From Bacillota bacterium (GTDB lineage: Bacteria; Bacillota; Clostridia; Christensenellales; CAMQZB01), in contig JAWXUU010000001.1 of assembly GCA_044426085.1 (NCBI GenBank), positions 15,084 to 79,083 on the forward strand: a stretch of 64,000 nucleotides of DNA, written 5' to 3'. Shown piece after piece: positions 4,194-17,919 of the stretch. The notes below the pieces were generated by a model that saw only the letters and a program-made list of their open reading frames with translations, was not told the DNA's origin and did no database searches. Within the stretch, counting starts at the first letter, position 1. The number at the start of each line of letters is the position of its first letter. The position numbers and the translations under genes were made by a program.

Positions 4194-5258
4194 CTAGACT
4201 GCGCCGCTTTTTTCGCAATCCTCTTTATAAAGCAACAATTTACCTGTATTCCAATCTACATACCCTTTTCTATACATTGTATCATATAGGCGCATAGCTC
4301 GCACTGCTCCTATTTGAAATTCTTCTGCTATGCTTGAGATACTGATGGATTGACATTCTAGTGCGTACATCAATACTTTTGCTAGCATCACATCGTCTTC
4401 TTCTGTTGTTTTTTCATTTTTAATAAATGTTTTTAGCGATTGTGCATCACTATATTTCATGCCTAGAATCATAAAAAATAAGATTTCAGCTGACCCTGCT
4501 AAGCTTTCATCAAGAACCGAACTGAAATTTATTGGAATATGCTTTGGAACTTCATCTCTTATTATATCCGCTGCTTCACTGATATCAGACAAAATACATT
4601 CATCAATGCATGTACTAAATCCAATCATGCACTTTTCTGCACAAATAAAATGATTATGCAAAATTTCATCTTTTGCAATTTTGTCTGCGGCCGCACTCAT
4701 TGAGAATTCGCCATCACAAACTTTTACTGACTTAGCAAAAACATGTTTGCCTTTAGTTATTTCAGCAATTTCTTCAAGACCAATATCGATTATTCCAATA
4801 CCTCTGCTCATTTTGTCAATGATATACATGTAGTCTACCATCATATCGAAAACAGCATTATTTCCCTGTTCTTCAGTTTTTAAATTTTCATTTCCTGCCA
4901 TCATCTCGGACACAGAAAATTTAGTGCATATTGATTCTTGCTTTTCTATAACGCTGAGCCATGCATCATTGTTTTCCAATAAATCAGCGGCTAAAATTAA
5001 AGTTTTAAACTCGGAATCCCTAGCTGATTTTTCCAGAAATTCATATACCTTTTGCGAAGCCCAATCGCCGAACTGGCAAACTATGAAATTTATATCTTCA
5101 CAATCAAAGCCTTGCAATTTTTCACAGATTGAAGCTTCCTCTTTAACATCATTGTTATCAACATGCACACAAAGTGAATTTGCAATATATTCCTTATCGC
5201 TAGATTTTATTTTTTCAAATATAGTTTTACCAATATTGCCGGTGCAAATTATATTCAT
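4194..5258 (-). CDS. FtsZ-fold protein with degenerate GTP-binding motifs fused to an FtsK-gamma-like winged helix (paralog 1)
   Basis: GIGIIDIGLEEIAEI aligns to FtsZ PGLINLDFADV. An FtsZ C-domain-like stretch runs KCMIGFSTC...LSDISEAADIIRDEV...INFSSVLDESL...ILFFMILG. The tubulin signature position reads CQFGDWAS. The C-terminal ISISSIAEEFQIGAVRAMRLYDTMYRKGYV resembles FtsK gamma. Confidence 0.6.
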   Translation of the reverse strand: MNIICTGNIGKTIFEKIKSSDKEYIANSLCVHVDNNDVKEEASICEKLQGFDCEDINFIVCQFGDWASQKVYEFLEKSARDSEFKTLILAADLLENNDAWLSVIEKQESICTKFSVSEMMAGNENLKTEEQGNNAVFDMMVDYMYIIDKMSRGIGIIDIGLEEIAEITKGKHVFAKSVKVCDGEFSMSAAADKIAKDEILHNHFICAEKCMIGFSTCIDECILSDISEAADIIRDEVPKHIPINFSSVLDESLAGSAEILFFMILGMKYSDAQSLKTFIKNEKTTEEDDVMLAKVLMYALECQSISISSIAEEFQIGAVRAMRLYDTMYRKGYVDWNTGKLLLYKEDCEKSGAV

Positions 5259-5261
5259 TTT

Positions 5262-5327
5262 TATCCCCCTTATATTTTAAATTAATCTTCGCTTTCAGTC
5301 TTGAAATACTCCATTGCTTTTACCAAA
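5262..5327. repeat. About 65-bp copy of the 3' end, stop and RBS region of gene 7801-8412 (second copy at 7779-7846)
   Basis: Both copies read ...gtaaaagcaatggagtatttcaagactgaaagcgaagattaatttaaaatata.gggg.ataaaaat on the minus strand. The copy at 5262-5327 has no ORF attached. Confidence 0.8.
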
Positions 5328-5382
5328 TTCCTTCCGACCTTTATATTTCTTCTTCTATTTTAAAACATGATCTATATACTTT

Positions 5383-15449: not shown

Positions 15450-15456
15450 GTTTCAA

Positions 15457-17010
15457 TTACATCGCATGTGTTTGCGATTCTTCTCTGTGTGGTATTCTGT
15501 TGCCTTTTTTATCATGAAGAGTTATATCGATGGTAGAGTTATGCATTTTTAGAGTTATGTCAAACGCAAACTTATGCGATTTTTCTCCGAACCATGCTTT
15601 ATAATATTTCTTTGGCACATCGATAGTGCATTTTGAACCATGCATTTTTGCATATTCGACAGGAACAACCTGCTTGGTTGAATCGTTTTCAAAAACTTCG
15701 ATTGTGACCACTTCTTGTTTTTTCTCGTATGGAATAAATTTTCCATCACTTTTGACTTCAACCCCACCACAGAGATTATCAATAGGTGAACCTTTGATGA
15801 TGATATTGCTTATATATGGGCCCTCATCACTTCTGCAAAGCACGCCATATGAATGTTGAATCACATCGCTGATTTTTGATGATACATAGTTTGTTTTGAA
15901 ATATGAATAGTATGCATTCCCAAGAGCGATTGCCTCGCTTGGCTTAAATGCAACTATATTTGATTCGCTAACTCTGCTTTTGAATTTGCGAATCATCATA
16001 TTTCTCACCATTGGCATTGCAGATGCACCGCCGACAAGCACAATTTTATCTATTCTTCCAGAATATTCTTTCATGCAGCTATCAACCACAGCTTCGATTT
16101 TCTTTAGTTCTGCACTGCTTTCACTTTCAAATTGAGTTCGTGAAATTGTCAAGAAGTCGTCGTCGCCTTTTGGAATGGTTGCAAACTGCTCGTTTGAAAG
16201 AATGTGTTTTGCTCTGTGAATATCATCTTCAAACCTAGAAATCTCCTCAAGAGTTGCATTTTTGCTAATACCGCCCTTGCTCTTTGCCATATTTTGCAAT
16301 ATTGTATCGAAATTTCTTCCACCAATTGCAATGTCGCCATAGCATTTTATTACATTTATTCTATCACCCGACCTTTCAACGATTGCAACGTCTGTTGTGC
16401 CCGCACCTACGTCTAGCACCAACACTATTTGATTTCCCATAACTAGCGAATCTTTCACGTATGCAAATGCGGCTGCTTTTGGCTCTTCGATAATATGAAT
16501 TCTTTCCATTGCAATTCCAGTGGCTTCACTTATACCTTTCAAAATATATTTATTATATTCCGAAGCGGAGTTGCGACTGTTTTCACTGCCAAGACCAGCA
16601 GGCGTTGAAATAGTCAGTTCAATATCAGAATACCCTGTCGCCTCATCAACAAAGTGCATCTCTTTCATTTTCTTGATTGCTATATCAAGAGCGTACTTTG
16701 CAAACCCAATAACAACTTCATTTATCGAAAAAGTTTTGCCATTTGAATTGAAAACTTCCTTGTTGTTTAGTTCAAGATTTGAGATTTTACGTATGTCACT
16801 CTTGAAATACTTAATCACCGATTTTTGATTCCTTTCTGCATTTGCTATTTCTAAGGATTCATTGCCAAAAATAAGCGTTCCTTTATTATGAGAATAGTAG
16901 GCAACACTCTTATCTTCTGCGACTATTCTCGCATGCTCGCCAACTGTGATTGCTACACTTGAATTTTCATTCCCTAGGTCTATGCCTACGTTATAAGTTT
17001 TGTTATTCAT
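15457..17010 (-). CDS. Hsp70/DnaK-family ATPase with a beta-sandwich-like C-terminus and no helical lid
   Basis: VGIDLGNENSSVA (phosphate-1, TT to NE), IIEEPKAAAFAY, VLDVGAGTTDVAIV and IVLVGGASAMPMV. The C-terminal 130 aa resemble SBD-beta. The protein ends at 517 aa. Confidence 0.8.
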   Translation of the reverse strand: MNNKTYNVGIDLGNENSSVAITVGEHARIVAEDKSVAYYSHNKGTLIFGNESLEIANAERNQKSVIKYFKSDIRKISNLELNNKEVFNSNGKTFSINEVVIGFAKYALDIAIKKMKEMHFVDEATGYSDIELTISTPAGLGSENSRNSASEYNKYILKGISEATGIAMERIHIIEEPKAAAFAYVKDSLVMGNQIVLVLDVGAGTTDVAIVERSGDRINVIKCYGDIAIGGRNFDTILQNMAKSKGGISKNATLEEISRFEDDIHRAKHILSNEQFATIPKGDDDFLTISRTQFESESSAELKKIEAVVDSCMKEYSGRIDKIVLVGGASAMPMVRNMMIRKFKSRVSESNIVAFKPSEAIALGNAYYSYFKTNYVSSKISDVIQHSYGVLCRSDEGPYISNIIIKGSPIDNLCGGVEVKSDGKFIPYEKKQEVVTIEVFENDSTKQVVPVEYAKMHGSKCTIDVPKKYYKAWFGEKSHKFAFDITLKMHNSTIDITLHDKKGNRIPHREESQTHAM

Positions 17011-17070
17011 TTTTTATCCTCCATGTTTTTATAAAACGCTTTTCTTAGCGTATGGTTACTTGATTGAATA

Positions 17071-17919
17071 TCAGTTATTCAAAACATAAACTGATACTCT
17101 TGCTTTCAAAATTGTATTATCGGGAAATACTGCACCATAACTTGCAAACTCTGCAATAGTTCCATTCAATTTCGGTTTATTTGTGCTCACAGACTGAATC
17201 ATTTCATGAAAAACTGAATCATATTTATCCCCAGTCTTCACTTCAACAAGTCTTATCTTGTGCACACTGAGCTCATTCACTATACGTGTGTGGTTAGGGC
17301 TTGGCAACATTCGAATTATGTTTGTGATGAATTCTTTACTGCCAAGTTTATCTTTTGATTCATATTCGTGCATATAGAATGCAAGCTGCCTTTTCAGATC
17401 TACCGCTTCATTGTTTGAATATTTTTTTATTTGCCATTCAAGATGCGCCTTTTGGGTTTGCAATTCAGCAACTTCTTGATTTAGCTCTTTTATTTGAGAC
17501 ACAAGCATGTTTGCTGCTTTTTCTTCATCACTTTGAACACGTTTTTCAGGTTTTTCTTTTTTTGCTGTCACAATATATGCAATCAAACCTAATGATAAAG
17601 GAATGCACACAATCAAGAGAGCTTTCAAAAGGGCTGCGGTCGTTACTGACAAGCCATCTTCTGAAGTGACTTCTTCTGTTTCTTCAATAGTCAAATCCTC
17701 TTCTGTGTGATCATCATCAGCAATTTCGTCTGTTGTTGCATAGATATATTCGACTACTTCTTCCACATCATCAATAGCTACATCAGATATTAAAATCGCA
17801 TCGCTTTCCAAGATATTATCATCAGCATAGACATTGATTGCATTAATGCCATTAAGCATGACGCATAATGCCAAAACTATTCCAAGTATATATTTGTTAG
17901 GTTTTATGTTATGTTTCAT
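17071..17919 (-). CDS. Membrane protein with signal peptide, acidic ectodomain, TM helix and cytoplasmic coiled coil; possible GrpE-like C-terminal domain
   Basis: Signal-like N-terminus and a TM helix ALLIVCIPLSLGLIAYIV. The coiled coil VSQIKELNQEVAELQTQKAHLEWQI is followed by KEFITNIIRMLPS and GDKYDSVFHEMIQ...GTIAEFASYGAVFPDNTILKARVSVYV. These resemble GrpE EKFINELLPVIDSL and DPNVHQAI...QKGYTLNGRTIRAAMVTV (recalled E. coli sequence). Confidence 0.45.
   Translation of the reverse strand: MKHNIKPNKYILGIVLALCVMLNGINAINVYADDNILESDAILISDVAIDDVEEVVEYIYATTDEIADDDHTEEDLTIEETEEVTSEDGLSVTTAALLKALLIVCIPLSLGLIAYIVTAKKEKPEKRVQSDEEKAANMLVSQIKELNQEVAELQTQKAHLEWQIKKYSNNEAVDLKRQLAFYMHEYESKDKLGSKEFITNIIRMLPSPNHTRIVNELSVHKIRLVEVKTGDKYDSVFHEMIQSVSTNKPKLNGTIAEFASYGAVFPDNTILKARVSVYVLNN

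Follow-up and report, generated by a model that had tools for sequence, protein, structure and literature searches.

A twelve-gene array with a soluble VirD4-like ATPase, chaperone-type proteins and inactivated FtsZ and FtsK homologs in a conjugative element of a Christensenellales bacterium

We analysed a 64,000-nucleotide stretch of DNA (the window) from a Bacillota bacterium of the order Christensenellales (assembly GCA_044426085.1, contig JAWXUU010000001.1, positions 15,084 to 79,083). The window belongs to a conjugative element that encodes a MobL relaxase, a VirD4 protein bearing a transmembrane (TM) segment, VirB4, ArdC and SSB. Its positions 4194–17919 hold an array of twelve open reading frames (ORFs) on the minus strand, all co-directional, intact and closely spaced, which an earlier note on this DNA had described as a chaperone set joined to a soluble paralog of the coupling protein and to three inactivated proteins with an FtsK gamma domain. 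All twelve ORFs lie where that note had placed them, and nearly every domain it named was reproduced in Pfam, NCBIfam and PDB searches. The array is best read as an operon type that is widespread in gut Clostridia but undescribed, present here in an enlarged and re-tooled copy. In its composition it matches none of the conjugation, partition and defence systems described so far, a statement of the earlier note that held up: neither the array nor the related gene cassette was found described in PADLOC, NCBIfam, Pfam or a limited literature search.

Gene content and layout of the array

Domains were called from profile and sequence searches against Pfam, NCBIfam and PDB, and TM segments from a Kyte-Doolittle hydropathy scan. 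The features of the array are listed from its 5' to its 3' end, with E-values in brackets.

17071–17919, minus strand: membrane protein with a weak GrpE-like match, two hydrophobic segments and a coiled coil
15457–17010, minus strand: Hsp70-like ATPase (Pfam HSP70 nucleotide-binding domain, 5.6e-30)
15417–15449: hairpin with a perfect 14-bp stem and a 5-nt loop, inside the 103-nt spacer from the stop of the Hsp70-like gene to the probable start of the AAA+ gene
13962–15353 (listed ORF up to 15443), minus strand: single-ring AAA+ unfoldase (AAA_2, 3e-31)
13339–13965, minus strand: 208-residue protein of unknown family, no Pfam or PDB match, tightly packed between the AAA+ and VirD4-like genes
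11625–13337, minus strand: TM-less VirD4/TraG-family ATPase (T4SS-DNA_transf, 3.6e-38; TrwB_AAD_bind, 1.5e-15; TraG-D_C, 8.9e-21)
10354–11475, minus strand: cytoplasmic BspA-type leucine-rich repeat (LRR) protein, no hydrophobic N-terminus (LRR_5, 4e-44)
9274–10332, minus strand: FtsZ-fold/FtsK-gamma protein, “gamma protein 2” (FtsZ_C, 2.9e-11; FtsK_gamma, 9e-13, above cut-off)
8473–9192, minus strand: calcineurin-like metallophosphoesterase (Metallophos), with complete metal motifs GDTHG, GDCG, GNHEN and GHYH
7801–8412, minus strand: 203-residue protein of unknown family, no Pfam or PDB match, its 3' end belonging to the 71-nt repeat
7776–7846: second copy of the 71-nt direct repeat
6141–7751, minus strand: TM-less FtsK alpha-beta-gamma pseudo-ATPase (NCBIfam FtsK PRK10263, 6.8e-43, from motor to gamma)
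5383–6144, minus strand: Sel1-repeat protein (Sel1, 1.3e-28), its start overlapping the stop of the FtsK-like gene by 4 nt
5257–5327: first copy of the 71-nt direct repeat, 94% identical to the second
4194–5258, minus strand: FtsZ-fold/FtsK-gamma protein, “gamma protein 1” (FtsK_gamma, 1.6e-7, above cut-off)

The VirD4-like ATPase retains intact Walker A (GSTRSGKT) and Walker B (ILDEFG) motifs together with the all-alpha domain, and is devoid of hydrophobic segments, whereas the other VirD4 protein of the window (58780–60882) possesses an N-terminal anchor. With just 30% identity between the two, the array protein, a coupling-protein paralog in the earlier note, is not a recent paralog of the type IV coupling protein (T4CP) of the element but belongs to a separate soluble family. 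It reaches 204.9 bits (E = 2e-60) against the NCBIfam model conju_CD1115, under the curated cut-off of 250 bits, and by sequence it is related to that family without being a member by the curated threshold. Among PADLOC families, it matched none except, weakly, mad8.

Gamma proteins 1 and 2 are full-length paralogs (24% identity, E = 6e-24). Among PDB entries, gamma protein 2 matches FtsZ structures at 1.7e-11 and the FtsK gamma domain at 4e-5. In the alignments, the GTP signature of intact FtsZ, GMGGGTGTG, is replaced by EYSSETSVV in gamma protein 2 and by QFGDWASQK in gamma protein 1, and neither protein matches the Pfam Tubulin family. The T7 loop is kept in gamma protein 2 (NLDYADI as against NLDFADV) and lost in gamma protein 1 (IDIGLEE); an FtsZ_C domain with the T7 motif NxDxxD is accordingly present in the former and not in the latter. 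A Foldseek search with gamma protein 2, which used a low-confidence AF2 model from a two-sequence alignment, ranked FtsZ structures in all of the best 34 places over about 300 columns. The PDB sequence matches and, used with caution, this ranking support a predicted complete FtsZ fold.

The third gamma-bearing protein is closest to true FtsK (about 32% identity), aligned from the alpha domain to gamma. The NCBIfam FtsK alignment extends to position 1349 of 1355, which covers gamma, while the Pfam FtsK_gamma match (1.1e-4) is below cut-off. The N-terminal four-TM anchor is missing; no hydrophobic segment is present, and the alignment begins at the alpha domain. The catalytic motifs have changed from GATGSGKS to GNRQDKD (Walker A), from IDEL to IPEI (Walker B) and from TQRPS to SSKS (arginine finger). 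Its homologs in two related loci (L057 and L017) retain both Walker motifs, are soluble and are encoded downstream of VirD4-like genes. The protein also matches SspH in PADLOC (1.6e-30). The alignments, in which the motif loss reported by the earlier note is readily seen, confirm both gamma proteins and the FtsK-like protein as predicted catalytically dead pseudo-enzymes. Unlike them, the VirD4-like, AAA+ and Hsp70-like proteins retain their catalytic motifs, in agreement with the same note, which had taken these three for intact ATPases.

The AAA+ protein contains Walker A and B motifs, a GYAG pore loop and an NVGF loop, in addition to a family-specific N-terminal domain, and it has one AAA_2 ring only (residues 204–384 of the listed ORF). 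Its closest PDB structures are ClpC D2 (2.4e-32) and ClpE D2 (5.5e-32), ahead of Hsp104 and ClpB, and in the alignment NVGF falls on the VGF loop of ClpE; the assignment as ClpB-D2-like made earlier is therefore better replaced by ClpC/ClpE-D2-like. VGF is the ClpP-docking loop in Clp ATPases. The start codon is most likely ATG 15353, because an AGGAGG-N5-ATG ribosome-binding site is found there and the homology to a protein of the related locus L042 begins at this position. That homolog is 41% identical over the full length and is encoded just upstream of the genes for ClpP, the protein c1 (see below) and a VirD4-like ATPase. In PADLOC, the AAA+ protein matches PDC-M37B (1.7e-32) and DolB (9.6e-27).

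In the Hsp70-like protein the motifs of the nucleotide-binding domain (NBD) are intact and the similarity in the substrate-binding domain is partial. It matches Hsp70 NBDs in PDB at 2e-18, the alignment with Hsc70 extends to residue 442, and the PADLOC model PDC-M61B is matched at 8e-12. As for the first protein of the array, described before as a membrane GrpE-like protein, the membrane part stands: hydrophobic segments at residues 9–32 and 88–121 enclose an acidic stretch and are followed by a coiled coil and a C-terminal region. Within the array, the hydropathy scan found such segments in this protein only, and none in the VirD4-like, LRR and FtsK-like proteins. The GrpE part is unproven, as the Pfam GrpE match covers the C-terminal beta domain only and remains sub-threshold (E = 1.5e-3; 18.7 bits, where the cut-off is 25.8). 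No PDB relative was found, the single-sequence AF2 model (pLDDT 43) is uninformative, and a GrpE identity is hinted at, no more, by the long helix and the neighbouring Hsp70-like gene. Among the remaining members, the metallophosphoesterase matches PDC-S10 in PADLOC.

The outer limits of the array are partly a matter of choice, because the same-direction gene run continues past both ends (1239–25456) and nearly all genes of the window lie on the minus strand. A perfect sigma-70 consensus, TTGACA-17-TATAAT, marks the 3' limit at 4069–4041, ahead of a MurA-like/NUDIX fusion gene, and a rise in GC from about 0.36 to about 0.41 at about 18 kb marks the 5' side. The largest intergenic gap measures 164 nt, as claimed in the earlier note, provided that the LRR gene starts at ATG 11460; the listed start codons give two 4-nt overlaps (13962–13965 and 6141–6144), not the single one reported. 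The 71-nt repeat comprises the 3' end of the 203-residue protein gene and the ribosome-binding region that follows it. Its other copy sits before the gene for gamma protein 1, and the two copies flank the FtsK-like and Sel1 gene pair, suggesting that modules were inserted, duplicated or shuffled within the array. The hairpin at 15417–15449 lacks a U-tract after it on the coding strand and hence is not a typical terminator; a part in mRNA processing, stability or attenuation is more likely. Scans of the window with Rfam models and for tRNAs gave no matches.

A conserved operon around soluble VirD4-like ATPases

The VirD4-like ATPase has 1,799 homologs at E ≤ 1e-20, which are about 33–36% identical to it and about 560 residues long. 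We took 80 loci from species-representative genomes, with flanks of 10 kb only, and clustered their genes; the sampled loci come mostly from metagenome-assembled genomes of gut Clostridia, Christensenellales, Oscillospiraceae and Anaeroplasma. The clustering separated two classes, true coupling proteins of about 670 residues (18 loci) and a soluble class (57 loci). An N-terminal TM-like segment was detected in all 18 true T4CPs and in none of the 57 soluble members. VirB4 is encoded within the flanks of five TM-class loci (L072, L074, L077, L081 and L086) and of no soluble-class locus, which weakens the earlier suggestion that the array handles substrates of a type IV secretion system (T4SS).

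Around the soluble ATPase, the gene order is conserved. A gene for a protein of about 540 residues, c1, stands immediately upstream in 38 of the 57 loci, mostly overlapping the ATPase gene (median spacing –12.5 nt), and a ClpP gene precedes c1 in 23 loci of this class. The first gene downstream follows at a median spacing of 10 nt. ClpP of the cassette retains the motifs of the catalytic Ser, His and Asp. While c1 has no Pfam match and no Walker A consensus, a profile of its 38 members aligns in the N-terminal half with Sel1-repeat structures (1.5e-11) and in the C-terminal half with the Lon AAA+ module (about 2e-5 to 3e-5). We make no claim on the topology of c1, as the Kyte-Doolittle scan flags even the cores of ClpP and is too crude for either protein. 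Searches for c1 in plasmids and phages gave no match. Comparisons of c1 with the AAA+ and Hsp70-like proteins of the window revealed no significant similarity.

Of the 108 genes at +1 to +3 downstream of the ATPase, 13 belong to FtsK_gamma, the commonest Pfam family in this set (best E-value 1.6e-25). A gamma hidden Markov model (HMM) built here matched only downstream genes on the same strand, 12 of them at +1. Four iterations later, the model matched the +1 gene in 31 of 56 loci and a single upstream gene, and no gene around the 18 true coupling proteins. The ATPases of L052 and L046 carry the gamma-like protein c6 as a C-terminal fusion (BLAST, 8e-24), and c6 aligns with canonical gamma in hhalign at 94.6% probability (E = 6.7e-8). 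Gene adjacency and fusion are the classical signature of functional partnership. The loci thus share a conserved operon of ClpP, the Sel1/degenerate-AAA+ protein c1, the soluble VirD4-like ATPase and a variable tail that is often led by an FtsK-gamma protein. The association with the ATPase core is no chance juxtaposition, gamma proteins following the ATPase far more often than by chance.

The window shares the core of this arrangement, a soluble VirD4-like gene followed by at least one gamma protein gene on the same strand, with gamma proteins at +2, +5 and +7. Several other members of the array recur near the ATPase elsewhere. Homologs of the metallophosphoesterase (47–52% identity) are encoded downstream of VirD4-like genes in six related loci, LRR_5 proteins occur in ten, and Sel1 homologs in L026, L027, L020 and L068, with a DnaJ+Sel1 protein in L026 and L027. 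The co-occurrence that the earlier note had proposed as a check was therefore borne out for the ATPase core with gamma, LRR_5, metallophosphoesterase, soluble FtsK-like, Sel1 and AAA+ proteins, but not for the Hsp70-like, GrpE-like and FtsZ-fold/gamma proteins, which lack relatives there. ClpP and c1 are absent directly upstream of the window ATPase, where the GrpE-like, Hsp70-like, AAA+ and 208-residue protein genes are found instead. This swap, seen only in this element, looks like a functionally analogous replacement, with an active HCLR-clade AAA+ protein carrying a VGF loop and with Sel1 as a separate protein. The upstream side also shows synteny between the window and several loci, namely a SprT-like gene and a divergent pair of HD_4/TGS and helix-turn-helix (HTH) genes.

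The FtsZ-fold/gamma proteins are essentially unique to this element, as judged from the protein collections searched. A word-indexed search of 5.8 billion proteins with gamma protein 2 returned nothing but the query itself, and a full HMMER scan of 1.84 billion representatives with a profile of the paralog pair returned only the two paralogs at E < 1e-30. The combination of FtsZ and FtsK_gamma occurs in just two other proteins among these representatives, P0145 (L004) and P0125 (L005), which lie on contigs of 2.9 kb and 1.3 kb and hence have no gene context. P0125 keeps GGGTGTG and is probably an active FtsZ; the signature of P0145, SDGTDTG, is degenerate. The other recovered contigs of the element (L001–L003) are 100% identical to the window. 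Megablast against PLSDB plasmids found no close relatives of the array, and plasmid protein searches with gamma protein 2, the Hsp70-like and the AAA+ proteins found only ordinary FtsZ, DnaK/HscC and ClpK/ClpC (at most 32% identity). Scans of viral contigs detected no relatives of the soluble VirD4-like class or of the Hsp70-like protein, and a metagenome scan seeded with the AAA+ pair yielded only distant Clp-like proteins on short contigs.

Some related loci carry further genes at the cassette. In L042 (3183–7251), a 703-residue ThiF(E1-like)+JAB fusion, the AAA+ homolog and a 201-residue protein of unknown family are encoded directly upstream of ClpP, c1 and the VirD4-like ATPase, an arrangement that would represent a ubiquitin-like conjugation theme attached to the cassette. 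The 201-residue protein stands at the place equivalent to that of the 208-residue protein of the window, and a comparison of the two showed no similarity. The cluster c9, found near the cassette in seven loci including L026 (2833–6426), comprises proteins of about 1,200 residues with an AAA_2 ring, a classical AAA ring and an FtsH-type Peptidase_M41 domain, by which it is predicted to be a further dedicated unfoldase-protease. A recurrent tail in L021, L044, L045 and L047 consists of the gamma-like c6, c7 (about 310 residues), c8 (about 83 residues) and c30; one cassette subtype may have a nuclease effector, given the Card1-like endonuclease domain at the C-terminus of c30.

In the window, the divergent pair (25860–28462) encodes an HTH_3 protein (372 residues) and an HD_4+TGS protein resembling RelA/SpoT hydrolases (488 residues); it is also found in L012, L057 and L067, possibly as a conserved neighbour with a regulatory or alarmone link. 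Between the SprT-like gene and the array lies a block (18030–24182) encoding a 1042-residue GLUG protein, an M6 (immune inhibitor A-like) peptidase and a thiol-activated cytolysin homolog, all with N-terminal hydrophobic segments. Its GC content is 0.40–0.42 as against 0.34–0.36 in the flanks. Because the upstream synteny is shared with related loci, the block looks like an insertion of secreted-virulence cargo between the SprT-like gene and the cassette. Farther upstream (29840–39452), about 12 kb from the array, there is a type III restriction-modification pair (Res, 1051 residues with RE_endonuc; Mod, 637 residues) with an interleaved Bro-N gene, followed by a SNF2-family helicase of 886 residues; these genes are cargo for defence or anti-defence. 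On the other side, positions 1239–3963 encode the MurA-like (EPSP-synthase fold)+NUDIX fusion and a MurB-like protein, and past the window start L001 holds a 458-residue protein of unknown family and a PheRS-alpha-like gene, diverged housekeeping-type genes of the same element. The T4SS genes, with their own T4CP, are located at least about 28 kb from the array.

Possible roles of the array

VirD4 and FtsK motors both belong to the FtsK-HerA superfamily. We tentatively favour a reading in which the array encodes a soluble, gamma-guided motor of a “split FtsK” type with an attached unfoldase, re-aimed in this element at the divisome, which would tie element DNA to the septum or shield it there. 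From the domains, the motif loss, the conservation of the operon and the adjacency and fusion of gamma domains, we infer the physical interactions, the DNA binding, the divisome targeting and the role itself. The hexameric VirD4-like ring would be the motor, having neither a membrane anchor nor a DNA-recognition module of its own, and gamma adaptors would supply the targeting in trans, a task that the gamma domain of FtsK performs in cis. The complex may be remodelled or turned over by an HCLR-clade unfoldase/protease module. In the window, the protease module would be replaced by the Hsp70-like protein, the membrane-anchored GrpE-like protein and an active ClpC/E-type AAA+ protein that could use host ClpP, and the single adaptor by three gamma proteins on dead scaffolds of the division machinery.

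Each scaffold would contribute differently. Gamma protein 2, having only the T7 (bottom) face, could dock on or cap host FtsZ filaments, since a subunit of this kind would add but could not be extended; together with a DNA-binding gamma domain, it might constitute a DNA-tethered FtsZ antagonist or anchor. Gamma protein 1 would be a dead FtsZ without the T7 face. The dead FtsK could join or block the rings of host FtsK/SpoIIIE. The module as a whole might link element DNA, possibly with XerD, to the septum or shield it from the septum, and the outcome would be segregation, XerD-dependent resolution of multimers or a delay of division, any of which could serve a conjugative element.

It is possible, though on balance doubtful, that the family constitutes a new class of DNA motors in Firmicutes with exchangeable gamma adaptors, here turned to divisome hijacking by dead FtsZ and FtsK scaffolds. 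If so, VirD4/TraG ATPases would also work outside type IV secretion, as soluble motors that FtsK-gamma adaptors program, and a gut Clostridia family of more than 1,000 members now annotated “conjugal transfer protein” would be explained. The element would be the first mobile element with DNA-tethered pseudo-enzyme copies of host division proteins controlling septation or DNA clearance. It would also illustrate a new principle, in which an element copies FtsZ and FtsK, kills their enzymology, keeps the docking faces and fuses a DNA- and XerD-binding module to them. The array would then offer handles on how large conjugative elements deal with cell division, in segregation, dimer resolution and DNA protection at the closing septum, and its proteins could serve as tools, being natural, sub-stoichiometric binders of FtsZ and FtsK.

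Several observations weigh against the septum reading. None of the related loci holds a detectable relative of the FtsZ-fold/gamma, Hsp70-like or GrpE-like genes (for the Hsp70-like protein, no homolog in 85 related loci), and the membership of these genes in the system therefore rests on adjacency in one element. The gene immediately after the VirD4-like ATPase in the window encodes the LRR protein and no gamma protein. A spacer of 149–164 nt with a promoter-like site separates these two genes, and because of it the array may consist of several transcription units. A search of the window for strand-polar 7- and 8-mers (KOPS/SRS-like) brought out no prominent motif of the KOPS type and nothing beyond the expectation from coding-strand composition. 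During iteration, the gamma model may have shifted toward winged helices in general, against which its positional specificity speaks. Finally, the cassettes of the family sit in chromosomal contexts by housekeeping genes, at some loci by defence-type genes, and these contexts fit a conflict system better than a segregation device.

A conflict system directed against phages or plasmids is indeed almost as likely as the segregation and septum reading, while being itself no more than a doubtful possibility. The ATPase with its gamma adaptor would sense or track invading DNA or capture incoming relaxase-DNA complexes; ClpP, the AAA+ protein or the Hsp70-like protein would activate or destroy proteins; the variable tail would supply effectors; and the dead FtsZ and FtsK would halt cell division or serve as decoys for the FtsZ/FtsK inhibitors of phages. 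The combination of a conserved NTPase core and a hypervariable tail speaks for such a role, and so do the contents of tails and flanks, which include the Card1-like nuclease (c30, in four loci), HAD_SAK_2, ADP-ribosylglycohydrolase, ASCH and an AbiEii-type AAA_21 protein. The cassettes of L009 and L010 adjoin AbiEii, TIR_2 and a Cas3-like helicase, in L042 the ThiF+JAB protein adjoins the AAA+ protein, and the array itself is about 12 kb from the type III restriction-modification and SNF2 helicase genes. PADLOC candidate models match four proteins of the array (AAA+, Hsp70-like, phosphoesterase and FtsK-like). In addition, HerA/FtsK domains have been captured into defence systems (PMC10853773), which we count in favour of a conflict role. 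On the other hand, no complete known system was matched and DolA is missing, many cassettes lie between housekeeping and not defence genes, and dead cytoskeletal proteins would be atypical effectors of defence. Were the conflict role true, the array would represent a new type of immune system.

The leading idea of the earlier note, an accessory of the T4SS, appears rather improbable. In such a reading, the TM-less T4CP paralog would be recruited to the membrane by the GrpE-like protein and gather the gamma, LRR and Sel1 proteins as substrates, Hsp70 and AAA+ would unfold them for transfer, and the dead FtsZ and FtsK would manipulate division in the recipient. The ATPase does possess the T4CP domains including TraG-D_C, has an all-alpha substrate-binding domain and nearly reaches conju_CD1115. 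Besides VirB4 and ArdC, the element encodes a MobL relaxase and a VirD4 with a TM segment, a membrane protein is the first product of the array, and TM-less T4CPs with a membrane partner are recognised (TraJ/TraI of pIP501; PMC7431656). Yet the element already has a canonical T4CP, to which the ATPase is just 30% identical, and its T4SS genes are remote from the array. The family cassette lacks a conserved membrane partner, VirB4 is absent near the soluble class (0 of 57 loci as against 5 of 18), and no relaxase or T4SS family is among the commonest Pfam matches in the flanks of that class. We find it quite improbable that the genes have no joint function, a cargo region having gathered diverged copies of housekeeping genes (FtsZ, FtsK, DnaK, Clp, MurA, MurB and PheRS-like) beside a VirD4-like cassette. 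Other diverged housekeeping-like genes do follow just downstream, the 71-nt repeat and the GC-distinct block at 18–24 kb indicate piecemeal insertion, and the unique genes have no relatives. But three independent proteins share gamma, the hallmark partner of the ATPase family elsewhere, and twelve intact ORFs are closely spaced and co-directional. The loss of catalytic motifs with retention of interaction surfaces (T7 loop and gamma) argues for function over decay, and the themes of unfoldase and Sel1 recur in the family cassette. Mere chance is an unlikely reason for the association of the core genes, but it may account for the unique ones.

Comparison with known systems

The array lacks defining features of T4CPs, FtsZ, FtsK, ClpB and Dodola. 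It falls outside T4CPs because it has neither a TM anchor nor linkage to a T4SS, FtsZ because the GTP site, defined by the tubulin signature GGGTG(T/S)G and the T1 glycine loop, is gone, FtsK because an active motor and membrane domain are missing, ClpB because there is no double ring or M-domain, and Dodola because there is no DolA.

Like FtsK and SpoIIIE, the system of the window combines a ring ATPase of the FtsK-HerA superfamily with the gamma winged helix. Gamma forms part of the motor polypeptide in two related loci and is the product of the following gene in many others, and among the array proteins there is one genuine derivative of FtsK alpha-beta-gamma. The system differs in that the motor is of the VirD4/TraG branch and has no N-terminal membrane and divisome anchor, gamma is provided in trans on varied scaffolds, the FtsK derivative is dead, and an unfoldase/protease module accompanies the motor. 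With T4CPs, the ATPase shares the Pfam domains, the intact Walker A and B motifs and the all-alpha domain, but neither the TM anchor nor linkage to VirB4 and relaxase, which was absent from the flanks of the 57 loci; its partners are ClpP, the Sel1/AAA-like protein and gamma, and the window has a separate canonical T4CP. TM-less T4CPs such as TraJ/TraI of pIP501 are a recognised variant class (PMC7431656) with the same domains and Walker motifs.

ClpB consists of two AAA+ rings and an M-domain coiled coil and has no ClpP loop. Common to the array and to the ClpC/ClpE-ClpP and DnaK-GrpE-ClpB systems are an Hsp70 NBD and an HCLR AAA+ protein with a pore loop and a VGF-type loop; the family cassette includes a bona fide ClpP, and a J-domain+Sel1 protein occurs in two related loci. 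In contrast to those systems, the AAA+ protein of the array has a single ring, a novel N-domain and no M-domain, the window contains neither a J-protein nor ClpP, the putative GrpE is membrane-anchored, and all copies are highly diverged and embedded in the operon of a DNA motor. Dodola, with its ClpB-like AAA+ protein DolB, and HerA/FtsK defence systems resemble the array in the matches of DolB and PDC-M37B to the AAA+ protein and of SspH to the FtsK-like protein, and in a conserved core with variable partners. The partners DolA, Sir2, Dnd and Ssp are missing, with no match to DolA (DUF6414) among the ten array proteins scanned with PADLOC, a set that comprised all but the Sel1 protein and gamma protein 1.

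The nucleoid occlusion proteins SlmA and Noc, MciZ and phage Kil are DNA-bound or filament-capping antagonists of FtsZ. By analogy with SlmA, the candidate binder of FtsZ and DNA would couple the position of DNA to the assembly of the Z-ring, and by analogy with FtsZ cappers, a subunit with a single competent longitudinal face would cap filaments. Unlike in any of these, the putative FtsZ binder of the array is itself a dead FtsZ fold fused to an FtsK gamma domain.

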